DNA of 64,000 nt, taken from the sequence record MT446392.1; one strand, given 5' to 3'. Shown piece by piece: positions 4,015-57,935 of this stretch. Origin of the DNA: Escherichia virus TH15. Every line of letters begins with the position of its first letter. Position 1 is the first letter of the stretch. The translations under genes were made by a program, and so were the position numbers. The notes under the pieces are model-generated. The model saw only the letters and a program-made list of their open reading frames with translations, was not told the DNA's origin and searched no databases.

Positions 4015-5757
4015 TTAGCCAATGTCAATCCTCGAACCATCAATAGTATATTGTCCAGATGCAATAGAACTCATTGAAGCCATAGTCTCGGACCAAGCAC
4101 CTGCACAAGTCCAAGATACAGTACCATTTACAGTCCAGTTTAAATTACCATTAGTCGTGCGAGTTTCATTACCTTCTACTAAGGTAGTCGCATCACCCTT
4201 AACAGTAACATCAGCATTTCCTTCAACAATAACAGTAACGTTGCCTTTAACTCTGAGTGTTCCATTACCTTCTACAGTTTTCTCTTCGTTACCACGAATA
4301 TGGATGGTTTCGTTTCCATCGGTCTGACGACGAACGTTAGCCATATTGTAATAGGTTTCATCACCGCCAACGTTGACTTTATTATTACCACCGACATAAG
4401 TACTCGAATCGCCCTGGGTCATATAATAACCATCGGCTACCGTCTTCGAAGTCTTACGACCATCTGGTGCAACTTCCTCGTAGGAGCCAGTCGGGTGAAT
4501 CAGTCGATAACGTTCTTGCCCTGGAGTGTTATCGAATTCCTGAATATGTCCGCCTTCGGTTTGCATTGTCTGCACATAAGGATATTCGCCCTTGTAACTT
4601 GATTCTGGCTCTTTAAATAGAATCCTCGTATCTTCTGGAGTCCACGGGTCGGCCGGGTCAGAATTTGTAGGGGCCGCAAAGGTTTGAATCATCCTATATG
4701 AACGCCCTTTAAATTCCATTTCTTTAGGGGCCATTATACCATATGATTCCATATTACCGGTAAGGATAATCATTGATACCCTTGATGCACGCCCTTTAGT
4801 TTGGTTAAACCATACTGAATTACGAGCTTCCTCAAATGCCTTTTTATAATCGCCTATTAACATTGCACTAAGCATTCCACGGAATTTAGCAAGTCCACCT
4901 AATCCCATTTGGAAAGCCATGTTTTCAAGAGCCATTTGTCTCGAACGGTTTTCTTTATTGTAAACCGGACCTACAACACTATGCCTACCTATATCACTTT
5001 GTACTTTCTTAAGGTCTTCCTGGAATAATTTGGAAGCCTCGTCCATTGATATTGCGCCAGGGTTACCTTTAACTTCACGGCCTATTTGATTAGATAATAT
5101 TTTGTTTATCTGATTCATATCTCTAATAGGTTGTGGTGTAATAAGGTGGCCAATCCCGACAGTCGGATAACCTTCGGTGTCCCAATATACTTTCAGACGA
5201 AGCCCCTCATCACGGTGAAGCATATTTTCAATTGTGAAATTAGGGTTATCGTCTGGCTTAACCTGACTTAAATCAAGACCATCAGGGTTAATACCCAAAT
5301 CAAGGTTTGAATCCTGGATTACGTTTGAAGTGGCATCATAACCAACTTCACCCCCTCGGTTAAGCGCTGCAGCATCATTACCGACATAAAGTGGGTATTG
5401 TCCTGTGGGGTCAGAGAAACCTTCGTTAGGATTTGCTTTTTGCCTTGAGGCTGAACCGTATGTACCAATGACAAGACCGTTGAGCTTCCACTTGTCTAAA
5501 AAGTGACCATACACCTGAGTCCCTGGTACCATACCAGTCATGGCAGTTTGAATTCCAGAAACCGACGCAGATGATGTTGGCATCAGCACAGACATCCATG
5601 GTAGGTCTTCAGTTCTGATACCTTTTACAGGCCCTTGTGATTTCTCATATGGATGCATACCCCATACACGAACACGGACTCTACCTTGCTGAAGCGGGTC
5701 CATTCGGTCTTCAACCACACCGACGAACCAGCTTACACTATCTGACATATTAATCAT
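4015..5757 (-). CDS. 5: baseplate hub / tail lysozyme gp5
   Basis: 580 aa; central lysozyme-like segment (GYPTVGIGHLI, cf. T4 lysozyme [10 protein letters not shown]) and C-terminal VxGxxTxxVEGN beta-helix repeats. Confidence 0.85.
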   Translation of the reverse strand: MINMSDSVSWFVGVVEDRMDPLQQGRVRVRVWGMHPYEKSQGPVKGIRTEDLPWMSVLMPTSSASVSGIQTAMTGMVPGTQVYGHFLDKWKLNGLVIGTYGSASRQKANPNEGFSDPTGQYPLYVGNDAAALNRGGEVGYDATSNVIQDSNLDLGINPDGLDLSQVKPDDNPNFTIENMLHRDEGLRLKVYWDTEGYPTVGIGHLITPQPIRDMNQINKILSNQIGREVKGNPGAISMDEASKLFQEDLKKVQSDIGRHSVVGPVYNKENRSRQMALENMAFQMGLGGLAKFRGMLSAMLIGDYKKAFEEARNSVWFNQTKGRASRVSMIILTGNMESYGIMAPKEMEFKGRSYRMIQTFAAPTNSDPADPWTPEDTRILFKEPESSYKGEYPYVQTMQTEGGHIQEFDNTPGQERYRLIHPTGSYEEVAPDGRKTSKTVADGYYMTQGDSSTYVGGNNKVNVGGDETYYNMANVRRQTDGNETIHIRGNEEKTVEGNGTLRVKGNVTVIVEGNADVTVKGDATTLVEGNETRTTNGNLNWTVNGTVSWTCAGAWSETMASMSSIASGQYTIDGSRIDIG

Positions 5758-13876: not shown

Positions 13877-14302
13877 ATGAACTTTCTGACCCTGACCTCT
13901 GCATTCTCTGTTACCCGCATCACTAACAAAATGGTTGCTGATGAAGTATGTGAAATCTGCATTCGTGAAGATGCACTTATCCATCTGACTTCAACCCAAA
14001 TTGTTGCCATCGCCAAGTCCCTTAATTCTGAACTGAAGGTAAACACCAAACAGTCAAAAGAATCCATCATTGAATTAATCCAAGCTGAAATGATTGAATT
14101 CCCAATTGAAGAAGTTAAAGAAGAAAAAATCCAGTCCAAATCTGGTAACGCCCGTGACATTTGCTTCCAGGCATTTGCAGAAATTGATATGAATGATAAT
14201 GCAGCTCGTCGCGCTCTGATTGATGACCTGGTTACTACCCATGATATCAAAAAGACTGTTGTTCAGTCTTATGCTTCCAACTTCCGCAAAGCTCAAAAAT
14301 AA
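13877..14302 (+). CDS. hypothetical protein; C-terminal domain shared with the next gene (...VVQSYASNFRKAQK)
   Basis: 141 aa; C-terminal 45 aa paralogous to the C-terminus of 14386..14829. Confidence 0.5.
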   Translation: MNFLTLTSAFSVTRITNKMVADEVCEICIREDALIHLTSTQIVAIAKSLNSELKVNTKQSKESIIELIQAEMIEFPIEEVKEEKIQSKSGNARDICFQAFAEIDMNDNAARRALIDDLVTTHDIKKTVVQSYASNFRKAQK

Positions 14303-14385: not shown

Positions 14386-14829
14386 ATGAAAACTTCAAAA
14401 CTGGTTAAGTACGTTAAACTGGCATTAAACAACTCTTCTGAAGCTGAAGCGCAATCCGCAGCGCGTATGTTCTTCAAACGTCTGACAGCTGAAGGTATTT
14501 CATTTAACCCGGCAGTATTTGGTATCACTCGTGGCGAAGCTGCTAAACTGGCAACTCTGGCAGGTAAAATTTTTAAAGGTCTGAATGATGGACAGGTTAA
14601 ACCAGAAGTTAAACCTACTCCTAAAGCTGAACCAAAAGCTGAGTGTAAGGCACCTAAACGCTCCGGTATGAGCAACAAAGATTTATGCTATGATATGTTC
14701 AAAACTGTTAATATGTCTAATGGTGCTGCTCGCAGAGCTGTTATTGATATGATTGTGCGTGAGTTTGGATTCAACAAAGCATCAGTTCAATCTTATGCTT
14801 CCAACTTCCGCAAAGAATTTGAAATTTAA
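14386..14829 (+). CDS. hypothetical protein; C-terminal domain shared with the previous gene (...SVQSYASNFRKEFEI)
   Basis: Start placed at Met 18 of ORF 14335..14829 (MKTSKL..., SD gggataa); earlier ATG lies inside the promoter. Confidence 0.5.
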   Translation: MKTSKLVKYVKLALNNSSEAEAQSAARMFFKRLTAEGISFNPAVFGITRGEAAKLATLAGKIFKGLNDGQVKPEVKPTPKAEPKAECKAPKRSGMSNKDLCYDMFKTVNMSNGAARRAVIDMIVREFGFNKASVQSYASNFRKEFEI

Positions 14830-21739: not shown

Positions 21740-22495
21740 ATGAATTATCTAAAAATATATGAATCTTTAATAGTATCTGCTATTAAAAGACCTCTTACAC
21801 AAGGATACACCGAAAAACATCATATTTTACCGAAATCGATGGGTGGTAATGATTCTATTGATAATTTAGTTACCCTTACCGCCCGTGAACATTTTATTGC
21901 ACACTTATTATTGGCAAGAATTTTTAAGAATCGCGAAATGTGGTCCGCTGCATATATGATGGCTTCAACAAGTCTAACTAACTCGGATAGACATAGATGC
22001 TCGTCACATTTATATGAATTATTGCGTAAACAAGCGTCGGTATATAATTCAGGTGAAAATTCTCCAAATTGGGGAATAAAACGTTCTGAAGAAACACGAT
22101 TAAAAATGTCAATTTCAAAAATGGGTATCAGGAATCCAATGTACGGTATTCCACAATGTTTGGAACACTCTCATAAAATTAGCCTTGGTGTTACCGAAGC
22201 TTTTAAAAATCCAGAAATGAAAGAACGCCACCGTCAAAGTGTTTCTGGAGAGAATAATGGGTTTTATGGAAAAAAACATTCCGAAAAAAGTTTGGAAAAA
22301 CAGCGGAATACAAAACGGAAAGGATTTCCTTGGGACAATTATTTGGAATTGTACCCAATTTGGGTTTCATTAAATTGCCCCAAGCATCCAACATTCACAA
22401 ATGAACTTGTTAAATTGGGATACCCCAAAAAGAAGCTTGTTCGAATAGTGGAAGAGTTTAAAAATGAATATATTCGAAATGCTACGCATAGATGA
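21740..22495 (+). CDS. HNH homing endonuclease
   Basis: 251 aa; N-terminal [11 protein letters not shown]...[20 protein letters not shown] is the typical HNH core; NUMOD-like basic repeats at the C-terminus; overlaps start of e by 32 nt. Confidence 0.7.
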
Positions 22496-39557: not shown

Positions 39558-40634
39558 ATGCAAGATTATGGCCATTGGTCTGTATTTGAAGAAGTTGACA
39601 TTAAAAATTATATTGGGTTTGTGTACGTGATTACATTTGAAGACGGTCGCAAATATGTTGGTGCTAAAAAGATTTGGAAACGAATCAAAGCAGCTCCATG
39701 CACATTCAAGCGCGGTCCCAAAAAAGGTTTTGAAGAATCTGATTGGAAAACCTACACATCCTCATCAAATGAGTTAAACTCAATTCTGGAAAATGGTATA
39801 AAGCCAAAAGAAATGATTATCATGGGTTGGTATCCAACTTGGGGTAAAACACTTATGGCTGAAATGGAAATGCAACTAGCTAATGATGTTTTGCGAGACC
39901 CAATGTGGCTCAACAAACAGATTGGTGGTCATTTCAACCCCAACTGTTTTGATGATTTGACTCAAGATGATATTGCTCGATGGATTGAATTTGACAAAGG
40001 CAATGAACATGTTAATTGGCCTGTGATGTATAAAATGGGTCAGAAAACTAAATATGTTAAACCTGACGAAGTTGAAAATTATTTGGCGAAGGGTTGGCAG
40101 TTTGGGCGTTCTCGTTCAGAAAAGCATGGAATAATTACCAATTGTTCTTCGTATAAAATTTGGGATTACCAGACTGATACGGAAGTTGAAGTCGTTAACC
40201 AAACCGAGTTCGCGCAAGAAAATGAAATCTCTGCAAGTCATTTAACCAGACTGTTACAGGGTGATTTAGACCTAATTCAGGAACGTTGGGGCTTACCTCC
40301 GACCATTGCACGACAAAGATACAAATTTGCTTTGGCTGATGATAGTGTAAAATTTATATCGAACGCTGATGTTGAACAATATTTTGGTGTTGGTCGCGGT
40401 GGTTGTGCAAAAATATTAAAAGATGGAAAAATTAAAAAGTTGGTCGTGGAAGACAAAAAATCGCATAAAGCAAAACTTGCAACCATGGATTTAGTCAAAA
40501 CAGTTCGACATGAAAAAGTTTCACAAATGGAATTAAACTTTTTCAAAGATATGGTTAATCCGCTATCTCAAACTGAAAGAGATAACTTAACAGTATGGCT
40601 CGAAAGCTATATACAGTATTTAAAAAACAACTGA
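39558..40634 (+). CDS. possible GIY-YIG-type (Seg-like) endonuclease
   Basis: 358 aa; N-terminal YIGFVYVITFEDGRKYVGAKK resembles the GIY-(10 aa)-YIG module; remainder unassigned. Confidence 0.35.
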   Translation: MQDYGHWSVFEEVDIKNYIGFVYVITFEDGRKYVGAKKIWKRIKAAPCTFKRGPKKGFEESDWKTYTSSSNELNSILENGIKPKEMIIMGWYPTWGKTLMAEMEMQLANDVLRDPMWLNKQIGGHFNPNCFDDLTQDDIARWIEFDKGNEHVNWPVMYKMGQKTKYVKPDEVENYLAKGWQFGRSRSEKHGIITNCSSYKIWDYQTDTEVEVVNQTEFAQENEISASHLTRLLQGDLDLIQERWGLPPTIARQRYKFALADDSVKFISNADVEQYFGVGRGGCAKILKDGKIKKLVVEDKKSHKAKLATMDLVKTVRHEKVSQMELNFFKDMVNPLSQTERDNLTVWLESYIQYLKNN

Positions 40635-40772
40635 GGAAATCGCTCAAATGATTAATTTTTATGGCTACATATTTTATGCTTTAGCTGAATCTATGAATGA
40701 TATTATCCGCCGCATGGGTGACGAGTATCCTTCTCAATGGCTATTCCTCGTAACCAATACAGGACCTTTCTA

Positions 40773-40988
40773 ATGAATAATTTTCGCAATGCGGCGGCAG
40801 ATATCCTGGCAAACATAACGCTTGTGTTGTTCATCGTTTGTCTGCTTATTCTGGCTATCCCGTTTGGTTTGCTGTTTGTTATCATCGGTTGGTTAAGCAC
40901 TAATCCTGGCCTCGAAAGCTCTGAATTCAACAAAAGAATCCAGGCTATTCATAATACCATTGCAAAAATGCTGAAGGTGAAAGAATGA
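40773..40988 (+). CDS. small membrane protein
   Basis: Start at Met 13 of ORF 40737..40988, coupled (TAATG) to a 41-aa upstream ORF at about 40648-40772. Confidence 0.4.
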   Translation: MNNFRNAAADILANITLVLFIVCLLILAIPFGLLFVIIGWLSTNPGLESSEFNKRIQAIHNTIAKMLKVKE

Positions 40989-41284
40989 AACGTTTTGAAG
41001 AATATGTAGCTACTAATTGGACCGCATGGGACAAGTTCGGTGATGAATGGTACTTCCATGACTGTGACTTGGACCCGAAATTCTTTGCTGATAAAGAAGA
41101 AGACCTTAAAGATATCTATGCTCTATCTGAGATTCATGGAATCAAACCGACGGTTTATTTCTCTTTCGACGACACTGGTTTCCTTGTACAGGTTTATGTC
41201 CCGTATGCAACCGCCAGCGATGAAGAAGTTATTAAAACCTGGAACTACCAAGGAGTGATTTCCTGTGGGCCAAAACTCGACTAA
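40985..41284 (+). CDS. hypothetical protein
   Basis: 99-aa ORF, translationally coupled. Confidence 0.45.
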   Translation: MKRFEEYVATNWTAWDKFGDEWYFHDCDLDPKFFADKEEDLKDIYALSEIHGIKPTVYFSFDDTGFLVQVYVPYATASDEEVIKTWNYQGVISCGPKLD

Positions 41285-41582
41285 GATTGAAATCTATGGT
41301 ATCCCCGAAGAAGTCGGTCGATGCCCTGGTTGTATGCACGTCAGGAGCCTTCTGGGCTCCTTAAACCTTCCTTATACATTCTATTCAGTCCTTAACAAAC
41401 AAGGCTCTGAAATCGCTTATGACAGGCCATTAATCGTGTCTTTGGCTAAGCGTGCTGGATATCCTACCCTTAACATTCGTTACCCAGTGATTTTTGTCAA
41501 TGATGAAAAAATGACCAATATTCCTGCCTTTAAAACAAAACTGATATCCCTGGGGTATGACCAGGACTTAATTGAAGATTAA
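41265..41582 (+). CDS. thioredoxin-fold (glutaredoxin-like) protein
   Basis: 105 aa; CPGC motif near the N-terminus in an NrdC-like context. Confidence 0.4.
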   Translation: MGQNSTKIEIYGIPEEVGRCPGCMHVRSLLGSLNLPYTFYSVLNKQGSEIAYDRPLIVSLAKRAGYPTLNIRYPVIFVNDEKMTNIPAFKTKLISLGYDQDLIED

Positions 41583-43372: not shown

Positions 43373-43638
43373 TGCACATCAATCATACAATGATATCCGT
43401 CCAGGACCTGGGAACGTTTTGGGTGGATGAATTCATGAAAATAACATTCTTCCCACACGCAGAAGGGTATGGCTCCTGGGAATCTCATATCAGCATGTTG
43501 AATGAAGGTCAATACCGCAACGAGCATGACCGGCTGATGGAATTCATTAGTGATGCTGAGGTTATCCCTTATATTGACATCCACGAATTTAAGGCAATTA
43601 TGGAGAAGGTCTTCCAGGCTTACTGTTTACTTCGCTAA
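43372..43638 (+). CDS. hypothetical small protein
   Basis: 88-aa ORF, translationally coupled. Confidence 0.45.
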   Translation: MHINHTMISVQDLGTFWVDEFMKITFFPHAEGYGSWESHISMLNEGQYRNEHDRLMEFISDAEVIPYIDIHEFKAIMEKVFQAYCLLR

Positions 43639-43686
43639 CGCTTTGTATCAAGGATGATATAATATTCATATACTAAGTGAGGCGAT

Positions 43687-44244
43687 ATGAACGAAATTAA
43701 ATTAACCAAGAATAACTATGTAAATAATAAAGAGCTTCTGAAAGCTATTTCGGAGTGGAAACAGAAGCTGAATGCGAACACCGACCCAAATAAAATTATT
43801 CGCCAGAACGATGTTATTGGTCTGGCAATTATGCTTATAGCCGAAGGTCTTAGCAAACGTTTCAACTTTTCAGGATATACCCAATCTTGGAAGCAGGAAA
43901 TGATAGCGGACGGAATTGAGGCCGCAATAAAAGGTCTTCATAACTTCGACGAAACAAAATACGATAATCCACATGCTTACATAACAATGGCTTGCTTCAA
44001 TGCTTTCGTTCAGCGTATCAAAAAAGAACGTAAAGAAATGGCAAAGAAATATAGCTACTTCGTCCATAACGTGTACGATTCACGTGACGACGATATGGTG
44101 GCTCTGGCTGACGAAACATTTATCCAGGACATCTATGACAAAATGACACAGTACGAATCCTCCTTAGTTAAAGCGCCAGGGTCTGATAAGAGCGCCAAAG
44201 ATAAAGAAGGTGATTTGGATTTTTTATATGGAACATCAATTTGA
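43687..44244 (+). CDS. 55: late-transcription sigma factor gp55
   Basis: 185 aa; ...NYVNNKELL...[40 protein letters not shown]... closely parallels T4 gp55, same length. Confidence 0.9.
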
Positions 44245-44461
44245 TATTACCGATTTTTTAGATAAAATCGAGGAAGACTTTACAGCGCTCCCATATTTCA
44301 TTAAACTTTATCTGCGAGACATAAAAGGTCTTCCAATTGATATCGACCCTTTAAACGTCCGGAATCTGGAATTTACTTCACCGGATAATAACGTTGATTA
44401 CCGTTATCATGTGGATAATGCTAATCTATATTTTACAATTGAGTTAACTCCCAAGGATTAA
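44228..44461 (+). CDS. hypothetical small protein
   Basis: Start at Met 7 of ORF 44210..44461, overlapping the end of gene 55. Confidence 0.4.
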
Positions 44462-44462
44462 T

Positions 44463-44774
44463 ATGCAAGCTCCAGATATTTCTCAACTGACCGATAAGCA
44501 GATTGAAGAAGCACAGGAACGTCTCGAAGAAGCGAACGCACTCGAAGCTACCAGCCAGGCAGCAAAGATTCTGAAAAAGAATGCTCGTGAAATTGAACGC
44601 CTGAATAAGCATGCTCAAGGGGCAGTGCTGGAAAACAATTTTGAAGCATACAAATATGCTTTAGTTAAACTGCGTGGAATTTACCGCCAACCAGTTACGG
44701 AAGACCTGATTAAGTTGATGTGGGAAACTACTCGCAAGCAAATTTGGGAAATCGTAAATGGCATTAGTAAATAA
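44463..44774 (+). CDS. hypothetical protein
   Basis: 103-aa ORF. Confidence 0.45.
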   Translation: MQAPDISQLTDKQIEEAQERLEEANALEATSQAAKILKKNAREIERLNKHAQGAVLENNFEAYKYALVKLRGIYRQPVTEDLIKLMWETTRKQIWEIVNGISK

Positions 44775-44958
44775 ACCTTTTAAACGGCTTCTTGTTGGAG
44801 CCGCTTTCAGACTTCGCTCATATGGTAATATCTGTATTAAGCAGACTGAAACCGAATACAAAATGATTGGCCAGTATTCTGACGGTATTTTTCAGATTGA
44901 GCCAGTAGCGAAGGTGTGGGTTGATTCACATCAACTTAAGAAATGGTGGCAAAGGTGA
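44758..44958 (+). CDS. hypothetical small protein
   Basis: 66-aa ORF. Confidence 0.4.
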   Translation: MALVNKPFKRLLVGAAFRLRSYGNICIKQTETEYKMIGQYSDGIFQIEPVAKVWVDSHQLKKWWQR

Positions 44959-45214
44959 TAACATGGACGGCGGGCTAATGAAAGACGAACATCCAGATTT
45001 TTAAGAGGTCATATGAATGACGAGTACGAAAAAGTTTAAGAGACTACGTTATGATGAATTCGACGGATTTTGATAAGATTAAATCTGACAAAAATGAGAT
45101 GATGCTTCAATTTGAAGCCGCTCGTATTAAAGCAGAAAATGAAGGTACTATTACCTATAAACCCATCAAGTTCAAGTCTTCTCATGAACCTCTGTATGGT
45201 GTATTAATTGGAAA

Positions 45215-45237
45215 GGAAGCCTAGTGCTTCCTTTTTT
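45215..45237 (+). terminator. rho-independent terminator
   Basis: GGAAGC-CTAGT-GCTTCC followed by TTTTTT. Confidence 0.65.
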
Positions 45238-45264
45238 GCTTTATAGTCGGGATGATAAAATGAA
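45232..45264 (+). promoter_or_regulatory. possible MotA-type middle promoter (TTTGCTTTA box, about 12-nt spacer, TAAAAT)
   Basis: MotA-box-like TGCTTTA overlapping the terminator T-tract, -10-like GATAAAAT downstream. Confidence 0.3.
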
Positions 45265-45281
45265 CCAACTGAGGAGAACAT

Positions 45282-45425
45282 ATGGAATTATTTTTAGGAT
45301 ATGTCGTGTTATTCATGGCATTCTACACATTCACACGAACTTGTTGGATAGGATTCTTTTCTACTCCTGACGGGTTCATCTCATTAATTTTATTTTGCAT
45401 TGCGATAACGGCGCTTGGCTTATGA
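45282..45425 (+). CDS. small hydrophobic peptide (47 aa, below the ORF-track cutoff)
   Basis: Hand-translated MELFLGYVVLFMAFYTF...; strong SD gaggagaa; stop overlaps gene 47 start (ATGA). Confidence 0.4.
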   Translation: MELFLGYVVLFMAFYTFTRTCWIGFFSTPDGFISLILFCIAITALGL

Positions 45426-46441
45426 AAATTTTAAATTTAGGTGATTGGCACTTAGGTGTCAAAGCTGACGACCCATGGGCTCAAAACATTCAACGCGATG
45501 GTATTTTACAGGCGATTGCATATTCCAAGGCAAATGGGATTAAAGTCTGGATTCAATATGGTGATATTTTTGACGTCCGTAAGGCCGTAACGCATAAGAC
45601 GATGGAATTCAGCCGCGAGATTATGGAACTCCTTCGTGAAGCAGGAATTACTATGCACACGATAGTCGGGAACCATGACATGAATCTGAAGAATAAGATT
45701 CATCCTAATGCTATCACTGAACTCCTGAATAAGTATGACCATGTTAAAATCTACGACAAGCCAACGACTGTTGATTTTGACGGTTGTCAGATTGATATGA
45801 TTCCATGGATGTGTGACGAGAACGCGACTGACATTCATCAACACATCAAAACTTCTGGTGCCGAATATTGCATCGGTCATTGGGAATTAACTGGGTTTTA
45901 TTTCTATAAAGGATTGAAATCTCACGGACTTGAGCCTGATTTCCTTAAGAAGTACAAGCAAGTTTGGTCTGGTCACTTTCACACCATTTCAGAAGCTGCA
46001 AACGTTAAGTACATCGGTACACCATGGACATTAACAGCAGGTGATGAGAATGACCCGCGCGGATTCTGGGAATTTGATACCGAAACCGAAGAGATGAAAT
46101 TTATTCCGAATGAAACCACCTGGCATCGGAAGATTTTCTATCCAAACGAAACTATTAACTACGACGACTTCAAAGACTTATCAGTCCGTGTTATTGTAGA
46201 AAAAGTCGATAAAGACCTGACCAAGTTCGAATCTGAATTAGAAAAGCGTGTGCATGAATTGCGTGTTGTCAATAAGGTTGATAACAGTGTTGATACATCA
46301 GATTCCGAAGAAGAGTTAGACATAAAACGCTTAACTGATATGATGGCAGAATATATCGATGCATTACCTGATGCCAATGAGAAAGAATCAAAAGCTCTCA
46401 AAGCATTGGCCAACAAATTATATCTTGAGGTGCAACCGTGA
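45422..46441 (+). CDS. 47: recombination nuclease subunit gp47 (Mre11/SbcD-like)
   Basis: Start at Met 10 of ORF 45395..46441 gives 339 aa as in T4 gp47; N-terminal LNLGDWHLG metallophosphoesterase motif. Confidence 0.85.
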   Translation: MKILNLGDWHLGVKADDPWAQNIQRDGILQAIAYSKANGIKVWIQYGDIFDVRKAVTHKTMEFSREIMELLREAGITMHTIVGNHDMNLKNKIHPNAITELLNKYDHVKIYDKPTTVDFDGCQIDMIPWMCDENATDIHQHIKTSGAEYCIGHWELTGFYFYKGLKSHGLEPDFLKKYKQVWSGHFHTISEAANVKYIGTPWTLTAGDENDPRGFWEFDTETEEMKFIPNETTWHRKIFYPNETINYDDFKDLSVRVIVEKVDKDLTKFESELEKRVHELRVVNKVDNSVDTSDSEEELDIKRLTDMMAEYIDALPDANEKESKALKALANKLYLEVQP

Positions 46442-48375: not shown

Positions 48376-49092
48376 TTATTGAGGCTTCATTTTGCAGTTA
48401 TCAAAATGCCAACGTTTCATATTAGCTGGTGTACCGACTACATTACAGTGTGGACACTGAATTTTGGGGTCCACCTTTTTCTTCCGGTTTGGATTGGATT
48501 TGCAGAATTGTCGGTGAGTGGATATAACACACTTTTTACCTTCAATACCACAAAATTCACAAGTTAAAATTTCATGTTTAGCTTGTTTTAATCCTACTGA
48601 AATTTTTTGCTTTCGTTCTTCTGAAATAGTATGAACAACCTTGTTTGGACCTTTGGAACAGTTATCAAAATGCCAACGATTCATATTGCCAACGAGACCG
48701 GTTTTTCCACAATGTGGACATTCAACTCTCGGTTTTAATTTGGCAGATTCTGACATTTTCTTTCTGGTTTCATCGGAGAAAATTTTATTTTGTTGAGCTT
48801 CCAAGTTTTTACGACGAAGCCATCCAAATAATTTGTTTTTGCTTCTGTCGGTGTTTGGTGCAGAAACTGTCATCATGCGTGCGGCATAGACCAAAGAAGC
48901 ATTATTTGGATGCATTTTGACCAACAGTTGATGACAAACGAAATGTTCCTCGGGAGTTAAATCAACAAGATTTGAAGCGTCGTCTGCCCCACCCATACAA
49001 CGGGGTATAATGTGATGACTTTCAGAGTATGTGGTTAATTTGCGATTCAATGCTCTGCTAATAAGCTTTTGGTAAATGATGTTATAATTCAT
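48376..49092 (-). CDS. HNH homing endonuclease with repeated C-terminal zinc-finger-like motifs
   Basis: Start at Met 68 of minus ORF 48376..49293: MNYNIIYQKLISRA...ESHHIIPRCMGG is the typical HNH start; three CPHCG...NMxRWHFDNC-type repeats follow. Confidence 0.7.
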   Translation of the reverse strand: MNYNIIYQKLISRALNRKLTTYSESHHIIPRCMGGADDASNLVDLTPEEHFVCHQLLVKMHPNNASLVYAARMMTVSAPNTDRSKNKLFGWLRRKNLEAQQNKIFSDETRKKMSESAKLKPRVECPHCGKTGLVGNMNRWHFDNCSKGPNKVVHTISEERKQKISVGLKQAKHEILTCEFCGIEGKKCVISTHRQFCKSNPNRKKKVDPKIQCPHCNVVGTPANMKRWHFDNCKMKPQ

Positions 49093-49329: not shown

Positions 49330-49755
49330 TTGAATAGAGAGAATATTATGAACAACGTAACTGCTAAAGATATCCAAGTTAAAACCATCCGCACCGACGC
49401 TAACCCACATAACCAAAACCGCATCCGTAAATCCTGGGTCCTGGCATGTGATGAAGTATCTGCCACCCGTCTGAAATCACTTCCTCAAGAAGTTAAATTT
49501 ATGTTGTATGGTGTTATTGATACTGATGTATCTGATAAGTGGATTGAACTGATGCAACGTCATTACACCGAATCTCTGGCAGCTGGTGCTAAACTGGTTA
49601 TCGACCGTGACGGCTCCGAACGTCTAGAAGATGATTACTGTGTTGACTTCGATGACCACCTGGTCCAAGCTGGTTCTATTATTGCTGCGCAACTTCCAGA
49701 GTATATTGAATCTCTTCCGGAAGCTATCCGCAAACAAATGGCAGTTGTTGCGTGA
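49330..49755 (+). CDS. hypothetical protein (position corresponds to T4 rpbA/45.2)
   Basis: 141-aa ORF upstream of the gene 45 cluster. Confidence 0.4.
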   Translation: MNRENIMNNVTAKDIQVKTIRTDANPHNQNRIRKSWVLACDEVSATRLKSLPQEVKFMLYGVIDTDVSDKWIELMQRHYTESLAAGAKLVIDRDGSERLEDDYCVDFDDHLVQAGSIIAAQLPEYIESLPEAIRKQMAVVA

Positions 49756-50639
49756 ATTTGATTTATAAAATAACCTTTATAACAAGGGAACAAAATAACG
49801 AATTCCCTTGTTATTATATTGGTTCAAAGGTTGATGCGACATTTAACGGTCAAAATATTCTCGACAAAAATAATAAAATTTATACAGGTTCTCCGAATTC
49901 AAAATACACTAAGCTGTATAATGAATTGATTGATAGAGGTGACTATATTGTTACTATCATTGGAGAAACAAAGCAGGACCCAAGAAAAATAGAAAATATT
50001 TTTCAAATGTCAGTTAAAGCTGTAACCAATGAGAAGTACTTTAATAAAACGTATGCTCACGACCAAAGCCGGTATGATGCTCCTGGATATGCTCCATACC
50101 GAAACTTGAAAACAGGTAAAGTCGTTAAATTGCATCCATCTGAACTTACATCTGATTATGTTGGTGTTCGTAAAGACTGCTCAATTTCGGATAAGCACAT
50201 TCAAGCAATTAAAGACTTTCAAAAAGAATATTGGACTGCCGAAGCTCGACAAGCAAGGTCTATTGAAGTCAAAAATCGTTATAAAGATGCCGAGTATGCT
50301 TTAAAATTCAAAGTTATAATGAATACATCTGAAGTATACGAAAAATATTTAAAATCAATTACTGAATATTGGAATAATTCAGATAATAGAATAAAGGCTT
50401 CAAAACGAGCAACTGAAAGAAATGCTAGTCCTGAGTTTAAAGAAAAATTTAGGAAATCCAAAGCAAGGGGAACCTGGTTGCAGTATGAAGATGAACTTAA
50501 AACATTGTGGAATGCTTTAGGTCAACCGGGGTATATTAAGTTTAGAAAACACGCCATTGAACATGGGTTTAATGATGAAAATTATCAGGGTGCAATCCGG
50601 TCCTGGTCAAATTATTATGTTAATAGGAAAATGAAATGA
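49752..50639 (+). CDS. GIY-YIG homing endonuclease (Seg-like)
   Basis: 295 aa; N-terminal LIYKITFITREQNNEFPCYYIGSK is a GIY-(13 aa)-YIG module; lysine-rich repeats follow. Confidence 0.6.
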   Translation: MNLIYKITFITREQNNEFPCYYIGSKVDATFNGQNILDKNNKIYTGSPNSKYTKLYNELIDRGDYIVTIIGETKQDPRKIENIFQMSVKAVTNEKYFNKTYAHDQSRYDAPGYAPYRNLKTGKVVKLHPSELTSDYVGVRKDCSISDKHIQAIKDFQKEYWTAEARQARSIEVKNRYKDAEYALKFKVIMNTSEVYEKYLKSITEYWNNSDNRIKASKRATERNASPEFKEKFRKSKARGTWLQYEDELKTLWNALGQPGYIKFRKHAIEHGFNDENYQGAIRSWSNYYVNRKMK

Positions 50640-53589: not shown

Positions 53590-55113
53590 ATGCAAGAATT
53601 TTATTTAACTATCGAACAAATCGGTGACAACCTGCTCGAACGGTACATTGACAAGAATGGTCATGAACGTGTTCGTGAAATCCCTTATGCTCCATGCTTG
53701 TTTATGCATGCTCGCGAAGACCAGGCTGCAAAGTATACAGACATCTATAATAAAGGTTGTGTGAAAAAAGAATTCGATTCCATGCGTGATGCATCCCAGT
53801 GGATGAAGCGCATGAACGATATGGGCCTCGAAGCTATGGGTATGGACGATTTCAAACTCGCGTACCTGAGCGACCGTTACCCACATGAAATCAAATACGA
53901 TTCAAGTAAAATCCGTGTGGCTAACTTCGATATCGAGGTGACATCTCCTGATGGGTTCCCTGAGCCGTCTGAAGCACGTCACCCTATCGATGCCCTGACG
54001 CACTATGATTCGGTAGACGATAAATTCTATGTCTTTGACCTTTTGAGCTCGCCATACGCCACTGTGGAGCAATGGTCTATTGATATTGCTGCTAAGCTGC
54101 AGGAAGATGGCGGTGATGAAGTCCCCGAAGAAATCCTGGAAAAAATTGTTTATATGGCTTTCGATTCAGAAGAAGAAATGCTCCAGCAGTATTTGGTATT
54201 CTGGAACGAGAAAACTCCGGTTATGTTAACTGGTTGGAACATCGAGAAATTTGATATTCCGTATATCTACAACCGCATTAAAAATGTATTTGGTGAAGCT
54301 ACGGCCAAACGTCTGAGCCCACATCGTCGTACAAAAGTTAAAGTCATTAACAACGGCTTTGGTGAAGAACAAGAAATCATTCAGATTCTGGGTATCTCTG
54401 TTCTGGATTATCTGGACCTGTACAAAAAGTTCAGCTTCACAAACCAACCGTCTTACTCGTTGGACTATGTTGCGGAATCTGAGCTGGGTGTTGGTAAACT
54501 TCCGTATGATGGCCCGATTTCTAAATTACGTGAATCCAATCACCAGCGATACATCAGCTATAACATCATTGACGTTTATCGTGTTGTGCAGATTGACCGT
54601 AAGCGACAGTTCATTAACCTGAGCCAATCGATGGGTTATTATGCAAAGATGCAGATTCAGTCTGTATTCAGCCCAATCAAAACTTGGGATGCGATTATCT
54701 TTAACAGTCTGAAGACTCAAAACAAGGTTATCCCTGAAACCAAATCACATGTTCGTCAATCGTTCCCTGGTGCATTTGTTAAGGAACCGATTCCGAACGC
54801 ATACAAATATGTAATGAGCTGTGACTTAACATCTCTGTATCCGAGCATCATCCGACAGATTAACATCAGTCCAGAAACGATTGCCGGGTCATTTGCACCA
54901 GCCCAGATGCACGAATACATCGCAGGAACTGCTGACCGTCCATCTGATGCATTTAGTTGTGCGCCAAATGGTATGATGTATTTTAAAGATGTTGCGGGTA
55001 TTATTCCGACAGAAGTTGAGAAAGTTTTTAATCAACGAAAAACCGAAAAGAAAAAGATGTTGGCGGCACAACGTAATAGTGAATTGATTAAAGAAATTTT
55101 ACATGGAAAATAA
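53590..55113 (+). CDS. 43: DNA polymerase gp43, N-terminal segment (exonuclease and N-terminal domains)
   Basis: 507-aa ORF ending in a stop; contains B-family polymerase N-terminal and 3'-5' exonuclease regions (e.g. FDIEV); continues in ORF 55791..56966. Confidence 0.85.
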   Translation: MQEFYLTIEQIGDNLLERYIDKNGHERVREIPYAPCLFMHAREDQAAKYTDIYNKGCVKKEFDSMRDASQWMKRMNDMGLEAMGMDDFKLAYLSDRYPHEIKYDSSKIRVANFDIEVTSPDGFPEPSEARHPIDALTHYDSVDDKFYVFDLLSSPYATVEQWSIDIAAKLQEDGGDEVPEEILEKIVYMAFDSEEEMLQQYLVFWNEKTPVMLTGWNIEKFDIPYIYNRIKNVFGEATAKRLSPHRRTKVKVINNGFGEEQEIIQILGISVLDYLDLYKKFSFTNQPSYSLDYVAESELGVGKLPYDGPISKLRESNHQRYISYNIIDVYRVVQIDRKRQFINLSQSMGYYAKMQIQSVFSPIKTWDAIIFNSLKTQNKVIPETKSHVRQSFPGAFVKEPIPNAYKYVMSCDLTSLYPSIIRQINISPETIAGSFAPAQMHEYIAGTADRPSDAFSCAPNGMMYFKDVAGIIPTEVEKVFNQRKTEKKKMLAAQRNSELIKEILHGK

Positions 55114-55801
55114 ATTGCATTTTGTGTATAAAATTACAAATAACATTAATGGTAAAATTTACATCGGTGTTCACAGCACCGATGATATTAATGATGGATA
55201 TTTGGGCAAAGGTACTTTAATTCAGAAAGCTATTAAAAAATATGGGAAATCTAATTTTAAAAAGGAAATTTTGGAATTTTTCGAGGACCGCACTTCAGCC
55301 TTTGACAAAGAGCGAGAGCTTGTAACCAGAGAATTTGTCAGTTTGACAACAAACTATAATTTAAAAACTGGCGGCGAAGGTGGTGCAATGTATGGTAAAA
55401 CCAATCCGATGTATGGTCGAACATATAGGAAGTCGGAATCAGAGAAGACCCAAATTTCGTTGCGATTTAAAAATGTTCCCAAAACCAACCAGCACAAACA
55501 AAACCTATCCAATTCATTACTCGGTAAACCCAGACCGGACATCGCTGAGAGACAGCGCGGATTGTTACCCTGGAATGTTAATTCTATTCGCAATAACAAA
55601 ACCAGACTAAGAAAATTCGCCGACCTGGATATTATTTTCGATTATTGGTCTAGTCATAAATGTGGTGTTAAAGCATTAGCGAATTGGTATCAACTGGCGA
55701 CGTATAATGAATTAGCATCCGTTATGCGATTCATTAAAAAGTATGGTGACCCGCGACTGAATGGTGATTGGAAAAAATTTAAGGCTGACTATGAATATTG
55801 A
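55103..55801 (+). CDS. GIY-YIG homing endonuclease inserted within gene 43
   Basis: 232 aa; HFVYKITNNINGKIYIGVHS is a GIY-(10 aa)-YIG module; MYGKTNPMYGRT repeats; overlaps both polymerase ORFs by about 11 nt. Confidence 0.75.
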   Translation: MENKLHFVYKITNNINGKIYIGVHSTDDINDGYLGKGTLIQKAIKKYGKSNFKKEILEFFEDRTSAFDKERELVTREFVSLTTNYNLKTGGEGGAMYGKTNPMYGRTYRKSESEKTQISLRFKNVPKTNQHKQNLSNSLLGKPRPDIAERQRGLLPWNVNSIRNNKTRLRKFADLDIIFDYWSSHKCGVKALANWYQLATYNELASVMRFIKKYGDPRLNGDWKKFKADYEY

Positions 55802-56966
55802 TTATAATGCTGATTTTACAGAAGAACAAATCGAATACTTAAAAACTTTGTCTAAAGATGAATTGGAACACCATTTATACAATTCTCAAATGGCTGAAGT
55901 AGCTGCAAACACCGCGCAGATTAACCGTAAACTGCTTATCAATAGCTGTTATGGTGCTCTGGGCAATATCTGGTTCCGTTACTTTGACCTGCGAAATGCA
56001 ACTGCGATTACATCTTTCGGGCAACTTGCATTGCAGTGGATTGAGCGTAAAGTTAACGAATACTTCGATAGTGTTTGTGGTACAAGTGGTGAGACTTACG
56101 TATTCTATGGCGATACTGACTCCATTTATATCCAGTGCGATAACCTGATTAAAAAGGTTGGTGGTGAATCTAAATTCCGCGATACAAACCACCTGGTTGA
56201 CTTCATGGACAAGTTTGCAAAAGACCGTCTGGAACCGGCAATTGATAAAGCTTTCCGTGAACTGGCCGAATACATGAACAATAAACAGCACCTTATGTTT
56301 ATGGACCGTGAAGCGATTGCATGTCCTCCGCTGGGTTCTAAAGGCGTGGGTGGATTCTGGACGGCGAAGAAGCGTTATGCGTTGAACGTGTATGATATGG
56401 AAGGCACACGATATGCTGTTCCGAAACTGAAAATTATGGGTCTGGAAACTCAAAAGTCGAGCACTCCAAAAGCATGTCAGAAAGCTCTGAAAGAATGTAT
56501 CCGTCGCATGCTGCAAGAAGGTGAAGAATCTCTGCAGACATACTTCAAGGAATTCAATAAGGAATTTAATGAGCTTAACTACATGACCATCGCAGGTGTA
56601 TCATCGGTTAACAACATCCAGAAATATAATGAGGGCGGTTTCCCTGGATTTAAGTGCCCGGCTCATATCAAAGGTGTGCTTGCATATATGCGTGCAACTA
56701 AAGGGCTGAAGACTGTTCCGCAAATCATGGAAGGGGAAAAGGTGTATGTGCTTCCTCTTAAAGTTGGTAATCCGTTTGGCGAAACCGTGATTGCGTGGCC
56801 ATCAGGGATTGAACTCCCGATTGAAATTCGTGACCAAGTCTTGCAGTGGATGGACTACAACACACTGTTCCAGAAGACTTTTGTTAAGCCATTGACAGGG
56901 TTCTCTGAAGCAGCTAAGGTTGATTACGAGAAAAAAGCATCTCTTTTTGATATGTTTGATTTTTAA
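55791..56966 (+). CDS. 43: DNA polymerase gp43, C-terminal segment (palm/thumb, motif C YGDTDS)
   Basis: Start at Met 11 of ORF 55761..56966; INSCYGALGN and YGDTDSIY polymerase motifs. Confidence 0.85.
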   Translation: MNIDYNADFTEEQIEYLKTLSKDELEHHLYNSQMAEVAANTAQINRKLLINSCYGALGNIWFRYFDLRNATAITSFGQLALQWIERKVNEYFDSVCGTSGETYVFYGDTDSIYIQCDNLIKKVGGESKFRDTNHLVDFMDKFAKDRLEPAIDKAFRELAEYMNNKQHLMFMDREAIACPPLGSKGVGGFWTAKKRYALNVYDMEGTRYAVPKLKIMGLETQKSSTPKACQKALKECIRRMLQEGEESLQTYFKEFNKEFNELNYMTIAGVSSVNNIQKYNEGGFPGFKCPAHIKGVLAYMRATKGLKTVPQIMEGEKVYVLPLKVGNPFGETVIAWPSGIELPIEIRDQVLQWMDYNTLFQKTFVKPLTGFSEAAKVDYEKKASLFDMFDF

Positions 56967-57038: not shown

Positions 57039-57281
57039 ATGGAAACATTAATTGCGGGTACTGTTGTTCTTGGTGCTGGTTCTTTCTTCTTGGCTGCACT
57101 GACCTATTTTCTACCGTGGATTATCGCGCTACTGCGTGGAACCAAAAGTAATTGCGGAATCTTCTTTGTTAACCTTCTGTTAGGTTGGACAATGGTTGGG
57201 TGGTTTATTGCGTTTATTTGGGCACTCGTTGCTGAACGTAAATCAAACGCACAGTTAATTATCATCAAGGAAACCAAATGA
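57039..57281 (+). CDS. imm: superinfection immunity membrane protein Imm
   Basis: 80 aa with two TM helices, downstream of gene 43 as in T4. Confidence 0.6.
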   Translation: METLIAGTVVLGAGSFFLAALTYFLPWIIALLRGTKSNCGIFFVNLLLGWTMVGWFIAFIWALVAERKSNAQLIIIKETK

Positions 57282-57421
57282 AGATAATTACAATTATTGT
57301 ACTGATTGCATTTTTTAGTATGTCAATCTATTGGGCAATAATGACTCCGCATATGATTCCAACTTTAATTTTGGGTTGGATATTTTTGGGACTCCAAGCC
57401 CGTTATGAATGTTTTAATTGA
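57278..57421 (+). CDS. small hydrophobic peptide (47 aa, imm.1-like by position)
   Basis: Hand-translated MKIITIIVLIAFFSMSIYWAIM...; ATGA overlap with imm. Confidence 0.4.
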   Translation: MKIITIIVLIAFFSMSIYWAIMTPHMIPTLILGWIFLGLQARYECFN

Positions 57422-57431
57422 GGAAAATACA

Positions 57432-57935
57432 ATGAAAAAGTTAGCTATCGCAGCTGTTATGCTGCTATCTGGTTGTGCTTACCAGGGTGATGTAGTTAAT
57501 GTCAGTGAAATTGGTAAAGCGCGAATTGCTGCAGACCGTCAGGTGCATAATGGTTCCTTTGATTTCAAAGGTGGTACTGGGCTTATCTACAAACGCGACA
57601 ATAGTCAGTGTGGAAATAACTGCGCGAAATATGCTCAACAAGAAATTGAGTACAAACGCGAGCAAGCTGCGAAGCATGATGAAGTAATCGCTAAATTAGA
57701 AGCAGAAACTAAGCGACAAAATGACTTGGATACTGTTAACCAGATTTCACAGGTCTGCATGTCTTACATCAATATGCAGATAAACATCATGCGCGCGGAA
57801 GCTTATCAGGCAGCGGAGACTGGTTCTCCAAAAGCCAATGAGTATCGCGATATGTATCAGCGTTCTGCTCAAAATCGTCTGAGCTATATTAATAAATGTG
57901 TGGCTAAAGAGAAAGCCCGCCAAGGTATTAACTAA
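57432..57935 (+). CDS. lipoprotein (candidate superinfection-exclusion factor)
   Basis: Start at Met 10 of ORF 57405..57935; signal peptide plus lipobox LLSGC; occupies the interval where T4 has genes 42 and beta-gt. Confidence 0.5.
   Translation: MKKLAIAAVMLLSGCAYQGDVVNVSEIGKARIAADRQVHNGSFDFKGGTGLIYKRDNSQCGNNCAKYAQQEIEYKREQAAKHDEVIAKLEAETKRQNDLDTVNQISQVCMSYINMQINIMRAEAYQAAETGSPKANEYRDMYQRSAQNRLSYINKCVAKEKARQGIN

Follow-up and report, generated by a model that had tools for sequence, protein, structure and literature searches.

In T4, the alpha-glucosyltransferase gene (a-gt) lies between genes 47 and 55. In Escherichia virus TH15 the same interval, which we analyzed within a 64-kb window (the whole stretch of its genome under study), holds only small open reading frames (ORFs). 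This locus raises two questions: whether the small ORFs take the place of a-gt, and what the interval can tell about the glycosylation of the phage DNA. The alpha-glucosyltransferase gene is absent between 55 and 47. We consider it very likely that the interval represents an "empty-site" version of a 55-47 region conserved in T-even-type phages, in a genus whose DNA is unglycosylated and in which a-gt is not needed. The original prediction saw the small ORFs as present instead of a-gt, and the interval as independent support for the absence of the glucosylation pathway from its T4 positions; as an overall interpretation it is partly supported.

The small genes between genes 55 and 47

The interval is bordered on the left by gene 55 (late sigma factor; 43687-44244, + strand; 80% of amino acids identical to T4 gp55 across 182 aa, E 9e-97; also called 55 in the SP18 and VR7 annotations) and on the right by gene 47 (SbcD-like nuclease subunit; 45422-46441, + strand; 72% identity to T4 gp47, E 3e-170). 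Five ORFs of 77, 103, 66, 57 and 47 aa lie between them on the + strand, with the sizes and coordinates originally described. The first (77 aa, 44228-44461) matches T4 a-gt.5 (39% identity, tblastn E 7e-13), Pfam DUF5491 (E 1.5e-12) and phrog_1169 (E 5e-29), and it shares its first 17 nt with the 3' end of gene 55, an overlap also seen in T4. It is followed by counterparts of T4 a-gt.4 (103 aa, 44463-44774; 43% identity, E 1e-22; DUF2654, E 6e-25; phrog_951, E 4e-40) and a-gt.3 (66 aa, 44758-44958; 43% identity, E 7e-14; phrog_1648, E 5e-29), which overlap each other by 17 nt in the window and by 32 nt in T4. The counterpart of a-gt.2 (57 aa, 45051-45224; 55% identity, E 2e-18; DUF5486, E 2e-21; phrog_2140, E 3e-32) is slightly shorter than the 63-aa T4 protein. 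The last ORF encodes a hydrophobic protein (47 aa, 45282-45425) that matches T4 47.1 (76% identity, E 2e-20; phrog_6693, E 1e-29) and overlaps the start of gene 47 by 4 nt.

All five ORFs have full-length PHROG matches, with E values between ~5e-29 and 4e-40, and three of the five have Pfam matches. Nonsynonymous divergence is lower than synonymous divergence (pN < pS) in every comparison, with dN/dS of 0.05-0.56 where dS could be estimated (0.07-0.35 for the a-gt.4 counterpart, 0.05 against JS98 for that of a-gt.3, and pN of 0.38 versus pS of 0.64-0.85 for that of a-gt.5). Because the similarity to T4 counterparts, the PHROG and Pfam matches and the excess of synonymous change concur, sequence comparison identifies the five ORFs as genuine genes rather than chance ORFs. 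Full-length similarity, together with order and position relative to 55 and 47, further assigns them to the families of T4 a-gt.5, a-gt.4, a-gt.3, a-gt.2 and 47.1, the orthologues that flank a-gt in T4. They evolve under purifying selection and are probably translationally coupled.

The segment upstream of a-gt.2 is more fluid. In the window, a-gt.2 is preceded by a 92-nt spacer in which its start region (ATGAA.GACGA...TTTAAGAG) recurs as two degenerate direct copies of 30 nt at 44978-45042 (+ strand; repeat search, 70% identity, spacing 35), each closed by a stop codon. The same search found three copies in SP18, and the spacer between a-gt.3 and a-gt.2 differs in length among relatives, with indels in the alignment with SP18, VR7 and JS98. 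Tandem Repeats Finder reported nothing in the interval at a score of 30.

The T4 region (NC_000866, 35.4-40.2 kb) reads 55, a-gt.5, a-gt.4, a-gt.3, a-gt.2, mobB, a-gt, 47.1, 47, and shares gene order and orientation with the window, at 39-80% amino acid identity gene by gene. What T4 has in addition is 2.1 kb comprising mobB (which encodes a homing endonuclease), a-gt and a second terminator/promoter module. T4 thus carries the same five genes around a-gt, and only the mobB and a-gt cassette is missing from the window, so the small ORFs are not replacements for a-gt. That they could form a functional substitute, such as a new DNA-modification or anti-restriction module, is extremely unlikely: some database records label neighboring genes "anti-restriction nuclease", but T4 carries all five genes plus a-gt, RB69 and JS98 have them as well despite a DNA chemistry different from that of T4, which makes their presence independent of the type of modification, proteins of 47-103 aa fall short of the size of a nucleotide-sugar transferase fold, and the Pfam and PHROG matches are only to families without an assigned function.

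The regulatory junction after a-gt.2 and the missing cassette

A single regulatory junction appears to separate a-gt.2 from 47.1, and both of its elements had been anticipated. The strong terminator is borne out: a terminator scan places an intrinsic terminator at 45210-45243 (+ strand), in which the hairpin GGAAAGGAAGC-CTAGT-GCTTCCTTTTT (45210-45236; 11-bp stem, 5-nt loop; about -12.9 kcal/mol in a single-sequence fold) is followed by a T-run (tail TTTTTTGCTTTAT). It fits the definition of an intrinsic terminator, in that the hairpin contains GC pairs, leads straight into a U-run and stands where a gene ends, and the a-gt.2 stop codon falls inside its loop.

The possible MotA-type middle promoter also holds up. 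A MotA-dependent middle promoter is expected to have a box of the form (a/t)(a/t)TGCTT(t/c)A centered around -30 and, 11-13 bp further downstream, TAnnnT as its sigma-70 -10 element. A predicted promoter conforming to both lies at 45235-45261 (TTTGCTTTA, 12 nt, TAAAAT), with its TGCTTTA core at 45237-45243 and, after the 12-nt spacer, the -10 element at 45256-45261 (pattern match, + strand). The loose MotA pattern occurs eight times in the window versus 3.3 expected, which by itself is weak evidence. A hairpin, a MotA box and a -10 element nevertheless stand directly 3' of a-gt.2 in all six phages compared (the window, SP18, VR7, JS98, RB69 and T4), and this shared arrangement makes a MotA-type promoter at this site convincing as a sequence-based prediction. 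The hairpin stems differ in sequence while pairing is kept (AAGGAGC/GCTCCTT in JS98, GGAACTC/GAGTTCC in RB69, AGGAGC/GCTCCT in T4). RNAalifold returned no consensus structure for five of these hairpin/promoter modules, whose hairpins were misaligned by MAFFT and have loops of unequal length. T4 has a corresponding non-coding site upstream of mobB, which has been catalogued as a promoter (PMC2988022). The genes motA and asiA lie outside this window and are both present in VR7. Scans for other promoter classes gave chance-level results, with seven sigma-70 sites in 43500-46000 versus 6.9 expected, hence no evidence for early promoters, and with no late promoter (TATAAATA) in the interval (six in the window versus 5.1 expected).

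From their consensus features and conservation, the hairpin would stop transcription arriving through gene 55 and the genes a-gt.5 to a-gt.2, and the MotA/AsiA-dependent middle promoter right behind it is predicted to restart transcription of 47.1, 47, 46.2 and 46, a unit that includes recombination nuclease subunits. In T4, where a hairpin, a MotA box and TAAAAT likewise follow a-gt.2 directly, there are two such modules and the glucosyltransferase gene is a cassette between them; the window has one. The two T4 modules around mobB and a-gt resemble each other (similarity score of 28 versus 13.3 +/- 2.4 for shuffled sequences, a score reached by none of 2000 shuffles). We also considered that the window module might be a hybrid, its left half resembling the first T4 module and its right half the second, and dropped this because the similarities were mixed. 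Insertions and deletions in the genomes of T4-like phages are mediated by motifs that combine a terminator with a promoter (PMC4122927), and junctions of this kind may be sites of gene gain and loss in T4-type phages. The arrangement recalls the PeSL motifs of these phages (Arbiol 2010, PMC2839356; Comeau 2014, PMC4122927), in which a stem-loop terminator is fused to a promoter, here on both sides of a variable cassette in T4. It differs in that the promoter in the window is of the MotA middle type and not of the early type behind the PeSL name, and recombination at the two copies would be an extrapolation.

The absence of a-gt itself is clear. The best tblastn hit of T4 a-gt across the whole 64 kb had an E value of 1.0. 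An a-gt-like ORF of ~400 aa does not exist between a-gt.2 and 47.1, a gap of 57 nt, and the longest ORF inside the 55-47 interval encodes 103 aa. No remnants of a-gt or mobB were found in the intergenic stretches. Genes for mobB-like HNH proteins occur elsewhere in the window (48376-49092 on the - strand, and 21740-22495).

Distribution of the layout and the search for other glycosyltransferases

The window is 92-97% identical to the Gapriverviruses VR7, SP18 and TH44, and this similarity places the phage in Gaprivervirus. The 55-47 interval shows 95-97% nucleotide identity to Gapriverviruses, with TH44 as the top match, and 83% to the JS98 group. We read the same a-gt-less layout directly in VR7 and SP18, in the Dhakavirus JS98 and in the Mosigvirus RB69, that is, in three genera. 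The exception is 47.1, which is kept in the window, in JS98 and, unannotated, in SP18, and is precisely absent from VR7 and RB69. A deletion of a-gt private to this phage, with relatives that still glucosylate, can be set aside with near certainty: the T4 cassette does sit precisely here, flanked by two similar modules that could recombine, but in 76 database records 80% or more of the query is covered by a single contiguous match, which a 2.1-kb cassette would break, the layout recurs in the four phages just named, and no remnant of a-gt is detectable in the window. By this comparison, the a-gt-less interval is a trait of the genus and is not specific to this phage. The absence of a-gt is real, ordinary and already known, since it can be seen in the public annotations of VR7, SP18, JS98 and RB69, the literature has discussed that Gaprivervirus lacks genes for hydroxymethylation and glucosylation, and experiments have established that VR7 DNA is unglycosylated. 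On its own, the finding changes little.

It also says little about DNA chemistry. RB69 DNA is arabinosylated (PMC6024577; PMC13326640), and because RB69 combines the same interval with glycosylated DNA, the 55-47 interval is a poor predictor of DNA glycosylation. The identical arrangement in RB69 and JS98 makes the a-gt-less interval weak support for the absence of the glucosylation pathway from its T4 positions. That part of the original prediction stands on other ground, namely the second T4 position and the experiments on VR7. Between gene 43 and uvsX, the window carries, on the + strand, imm (57039-57281), 42.1 (57278-57421) and a lipoprotein-like ORF of 176 aa (57405-57935); their translations show that gene 42 and b-gt are absent from this site (57039-57935). 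The VR7 arrangement is that of the window. JS98 and RB69 carry a 5-hydroxycytosine/arabinosylation cluster here that the window and VR7 lack, and the window region has only orf43 and orf44 in common with JS98.

A glycosyltransferase could nevertheless be encoded elsewhere and glycosylate the DNA after all, as in RB69, whose 55-47 interval is equally empty (as is that of JS98), whose DNA is arabinosylated through genes at other positions and whose arabinosyltransferase gene adjoins rIIA. Our inspection covers 64 kb of this genome, with the rest judged by analogy with VR7. A search for glycosyltransferases in the window found none by tblastn or Pfam: T4 b-gt, T4 gp42 and the RB69 arabinosyltransferase ORF003c gave only E > 1, and the 30 ORFs submitted to Pfam, including the ten largest unassigned ones, contained no GT family at E <= 0.1. 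A rebuilt complete VR7 genome likewise had no match at E < 1 to a-gt, b-gt, gp42, ORF003c or 5-hydroxy-dCMP synthase. With homologues of ORF003c, a-gt and b-gt in neither the window nor VR7, with the JS98/RB69 5-hydroxy-dCMP and UDP-arabinose cluster missing from the 43-uvsX region, and with VR7 DNA open to cutting by Csp6I, which is glycosylation-sensitive, and fully restricted by BREX, like non-glucosylated T4 (PMC6326788), glycosylation by a gene elsewhere is very improbable. The same 30 ORFs contained no methyltransferase or ThyA-family domain. An ORF at 13877-14299, deaminase-like in the VR7 annotation, had no Pfam match.

Probable cytosine modification in Gapriverviruses

If the DNA is unglycosylated, it might simply contain plain cytosine, as in RB49-type phages, and the missing genes 42, a-gt and b-gt would reflect an unmodified genome. 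The lack of a dedicated gene 42 homologue in the window and in the VR7 genome agrees with this, but the published work on Gapriverviruses does not. The genus has no known base-modification enzymes, yet it keeps dCTPase, Alc, DenA and DenB (PMC8056088; PMC12115623), and those of VR7, with dCTPase encoded by gene 56, act against cytosine-containing DNA (PMC12115623); restriction analysis of VR7 moreover shows modified cytosines (PMC6326788). The single ThyA-family gene in the complete VR7 genome encodes an enzyme with the dCMP-specific Asp177. We regard plain cytosine as very improbable. More consistent with these observations is a genus without hydroxymethylcytosine or glycosylation genes, in whose DNA the cytosines are most likely modified in a way that provides no hydroxyl to which a sugar could be attached.

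Which modification this might be is suggested by the thymidylate synthase gene td, located outside this window. In ThyA-family enzymes, N177D marks dCMP as the substrate, a hydrophobic residue at L143 a methyl product and D169N a 5-hydroxy product (PMC13326640; PMC8670742), and the N177 rule gave the right product for 5 of the 7 enzymes tested in one study (bioRxiv 2024.12.05.627091). In an alignment in which controls fit this residue code, td of four Gapriverviruses (VR7, TH44, SP18 and CJ20) reads L143/D169/D177 and, with the catalytic Cys146, bears the predicted signature of a dCMP C5-methyltransferase. We therefore lean toward the reading that Gapriverviruses, including this phage, replace cytosine with 5-methylcytosine through a re-specified td, their single thymidylate synthase-type enzyme, acting as a dCMP methyltransferase, a proposal that draws on td of relatives and under which the absence of a-gt, b-gt and 42 would not be plain loss. 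Since 5-methylcytosine lacks a hydroxyl group, it cannot serve as a substrate for any glycosyltransferase. The dTTP would be supplied by the host's enzyme or by deaminating the methylated nucleotide.

A comparable pathway is that of Xp12, in which a ThyA homologue methylates dCMP and a deaminase supplies dTTP (PMC8670742; bioRxiv 2024.12.05.627091). The relatives' td shares Asp177, Leu143 and Asp169 with it, and both a gene of the dCMP deaminase family (cd) and one for a dNMP kinase (gene 1) occur as well. Unlike the Xp12 enzyme, Gaprivervirus td is 64-70% identical to genuine T4-type thymidylate synthases. In the literature, we found no paper linking Gaprivervirus to 5-methylcytosine and no chemical analysis of Gaprivervirus DNA. 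If true, the 5-methylcytosine reading would settle which base Gapriverviruses use, a point on which PMC8056088 and PMC12115623 gave no answer. If confirmed, it would mean that coliphages in therapeutic use have 5-methylcytosine DNA, and would bear on their sensitivity to BREX, type IV restriction and CRISPR as well as on genome sequencing and engineering. Three other T4-type lineages are reported to be without any known base-modification enzymes, namely Acinetobacter phages 133 and ZZ1 and Morganella phage MP1, and all three share the td signature of the Gapriverviruses.

Gene content of the 55-47 interval

By sequence identity we assign the window to Gaprivervirus, a genus of T4-type phages, because the 1.9 kb around the interval between genes 55 and 47 (734 matching phage records in a database search) are 95-97% identical to the best matches, the Gapriverviruses TH44, MN01, EAWsc9, RZ, VR20, SP18 and VR7, and 85-89% of a 24-kb piece aligns with VR7, VR26, VR25 and TH40 at 92-95% identity. 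An identical record was absent from the collection compared. The early and middle genes of the window lie on the + strand, as do gene 55 (43687-44244, 80% identity to the T4 protein), gene 47 (45422-46441, 72%) and the small ORFs between them.

The original prediction held that this interval lacks the T4 alpha-glucosyltransferase gene (a-gt) and carries small ORFs instead. The absence is confirmed, the best tblastn E value of T4 a-gt across the whole 64-kb window being 1. The ORFs are also in place, as orthologues of a-gt.5 (77 aa; 44228-44461; 39% tblastn identity to the T4 protein), a-gt.4 (103 aa; 44463-44774; 43%), a-gt.3 (66 aa; 44758-44958; 43%), a-gt.2 (57 aa; 45051-45224; 55%) and 47.1 (47 aa; 45282-45425; 76%), with E values of about 7e-13 to 2e-20. 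They are no substitute for a-gt, however, because T4 carries all five alongside it, in the order 55, a-gt.5, a-gt.4, a-gt.3, a-gt.2, mobB, a-gt, 47.1, 47. All five have full-length PHROG matches (E about 1e-29 to 4e-40) to families of unknown function, and three match Pfam families founded on these T4 proteins (DUF5491, DUF2654 and DUF5486). In comparisons with JS98, RB69 and T4, substitution is much more frequent at synonymous than at non-synonymous sites (dN/dS 0.05-0.56 wherever computable). Judged by this conservation, the five are genuine genes, and four already carry their T4 names in the SP18 and VR7 annotation.

Gene 47.1 is polymorphic within Gaprivervirus: it is present in the window and, unannotated, in SP18 (about 4745-4890 of record L001), and precisely absent from VR7 (site at 3123-3179 of record L002), where the same ribosome-binding site runs straight into gene 47. 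RB69 likewise lacks it. At the other end of the operon, a-gt.5 shares only 36% identity with its JS98 counterpart, whereas the other four genes share 80-94%, a drop that probably marks a mosaic boundary. In the spacer between a-gt.3 and a-gt.2 (44959-45050), the a-gt.2 start region recurs as two degenerate 30-nt copies, each closing with a stop codon; the first encodes MKDEHPDF, similar to the N-terminus of T4 a-gt.2. The SP18 spacer (L001 4360-4515) has three such copies and an additional insert; in T4 the two genes overlap and the spacer is absent.

A predicted terminator-promoter junction behind a-gt.2

The strong terminator and the possible MotA-type middle promoter of the original prediction are both borne out as predicted elements: an 11-bp hairpin followed by a T-run (45210-45236, +) folds at -12.9 kcal/mol, and TGCTTTA, 12 nt and TAAAAT (45237-45261, +) lie directly behind it. 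A stable hairpin follows the a-gt.2 stop codon in six phages (the window, SP18, VR7, JS98, RB69 and T4), with stems that vary in sequence while pairing is kept; beyond it come, in all six, a T-run, the box TTGCTTTATA and, 11-12 nt on, GATAAAAT or GGTAAAAT. We read this junction as a predicted terminator fused to a predicted MotA-type middle promoter. Both motA and asiA are encoded by VR7, and the promoter listed for T4 mobB is a non-coding site ahead of that gene (PMC2988022). Transcripts coming through 55 and the a-gt.x genes would terminate at the hairpin, and MotA-dependent transcription would restart behind it for 47.1, 47, 46.2 and 46.

T4 has a second such terminator-promoter module after a-gt, just ahead of 47.1 (AGGGCTTCGGCCCT-TT-AGCTTTATA-N12-TATAAT). 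The similarity score between its two modules is 28, a value reached by none of 2000 shuffles (13.3 +/- 2.4). In T4, mobB, a-gt and the second module thus make up a cassette of 2.1 kb, set between two similar modules; the window has one module and lacks the cassette. T4-type genomes are known to gain and lose genes at composite terminator/promoter motifs (PMC4122927; PMC2839356), and we infer that such motifs may have mediated gain or loss here. The feature is an ordinary genus-wide difference in gene content at a conserved regulatory junction.

Glycosylation genes and the td signature

The interval had also been taken as support for a missing glucosylation pathway. This stands only in part: gene 42 and the beta-glucosyltransferase gene (b-gt) are absent from the window too, but an empty 55-47 interval by itself is no predictor of unglycosylated DNA, because RB69 (Mosigvirus), which like JS98 (Dhakavirus) has the same interval without a-gt, carries arabinosyl-5-hydroxycytosine, with genes located elsewhere (PMC6024577; PMC13326640). 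The same modification is predicted for the JS98 group. The gene 43-uvsX region is more informative. It holds gene 42 and b-gt in T4 and an RB69-type cluster including 5-hydroxy-dCMP synthase in JS98, whereas in the window and VR7 its content is limited to imm, 42.1 and a lipoprotein-like ORF of 176 aa. Homologues of T4 gp42, b-gt, the RB69 arabinosyltransferase ORF003c and the JS98 cluster proteins orf38-orf42 were not found in the window, and a glycosyltransferase domain is likewise missing from all 10 of its largest unassigned ORFs. The complete VR7 genome (169,285 bp, joined from five pieces) agrees: there a-gt, b-gt, gp42, ORF003c and 5-hydroxy-dCMP synthase nowhere reach a tblastn E < 1.

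According to Gordeeva et al. (PMC6326788), restriction analysis shows that VR7 cytosines are modified and its DNA unglycosylated, and BREX restricts VR7 more than 1e11-fold, similar to a T4 mutant with non-glucosylated hydroxymethylcytosine. Two comparative papers describe Gaprivervirus as lacking any known non-canonical-base enzyme while keeping dCTPase, Alc, DenA, DenB and Ndd, and both give the identity of its base as unknown (PMC8056088; PMC12115623). The a-gt-less interval is therefore real, a trait of the whole genus and already known.

The sole point here that merits an experiment lies outside the window. The only ThyA-family gene of VR7 is annotated as thymidylate synthase (td; NC_014792 142492-143349); its product has GLPFDIGSY at the place of GLPFNIASY in thymidylate synthases. 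Numbered by alignment on E. coli ThyA, the td of VR7, TH44, SP18 and CJ20 (records L012-L014 for the last three) has L143, D169 and D177, and that of Tequatrovirus slur07, JS98 and RB69, like E. coli ThyA itself, has L143, D169 and N177; T4 gp42 has D143, D169 and D177, and the JS98 homologue of the RB69 5-hydroxy-dCMP synthase E143, N169 and D177. In the published residue code, an enzyme with N177D uses dCMP in place of dUMP, the product is methylated and not hydroxymethylated when residue 143 is hydrophobic, and D169N marks 5-hydroxy-dCMP synthases (PMC13326640; PMC8670742). By this code, L143/D169/D177 predicts that Gaprivervirus td acts as a dCMP methyltransferase, which would place 5-methylcytosine in the DNA; the N177 rule gave the right product for five of seven enzymes in one study (bioRxiv 2024.12.05.627091).

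The same residues occur in the only td of Acinetobacter phages 133 (L018) and ZZ1 (L019) and Morganella phage MP1 (L020), the three other T4-type lineages reported without known modification enzymes, and Asn177 is kept by the genuine td of T4-type phages having gene 42 or an RB69-type synthase. The Gaprivervirus td sequences stand apart as a group of their own, with 32 records at >= 85% identity and the next best at 70%. In phages with 5-methylcytosine, deamination of the methylated nucleotide can supply dTTP (bioRxiv 2024.12.05.627091), and VR7 has a dCMP deaminase gene. The literature searched yielded no chemical analysis of Gaprivervirus DNA. The restriction results for VR7 would be accounted for by 5-methylcytosine, because cytosine methylation affects EcoRII and SalI but leaves Csp6I unaffected (PMC6326788).

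Homing endonucleases and other loci of the window

A 358-aa SegE-like GIY-YIG homing endonuclease ORF (39558-40634, +) stands in place of gene 49 (endonuclease VII, the packaging resolvase), which is present at the corresponding site in VR7, VR20, VR25 and VR26. Homology to VR7 ends at 39560 and returns at 40618, only the last 15 gene 49 codons being retained, and the 64-kb window holds no further copy. Gene 43 (DNA polymerase; 53590-56966, +), intact in VR7, is here divided between two ORFs (53590-55113 and 55761-56966, corresponding to T4 gp43 residues 1-500 and 517-897) with a 232-aa SegA-like GIY-YIG ORF (55103-55801) between them. Three further free-standing homing endonuclease genes are not at the corresponding VR7 sites: a mobB-like HNH gene between 46 and 45.2, oriented against its neighbours (48376-49092, -), a second one upstream of the lysozyme gene e (21740-22495, +), and an ORF between rpbA and 45 (49752-50639, +), whose N-terminus looks seg-type GIY-YIG-like by eye and whose C-terminus gives only a weak SegA match.

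The ORF at 13877-14299 (+), 99% conserved in VR7 and annotated there as similar to cytidine/deoxycytidylate deaminase, has no Pfam match and hits phrog_9997 only; the ORF that follows (14596-14814, +) contains a paralogue of its C-terminal half, and another paralogue lies beside motA in VR7. The anaerobic ribonucleotide reductase genes nrdD and nrdG are absent at 40737-41582 of the window and at 39.2-40.0 kb of VR7, between 55.8 and 49; nrdD is annotated in the matching region of some Gapriverviruses (VR20, VR25 and UPEC01).
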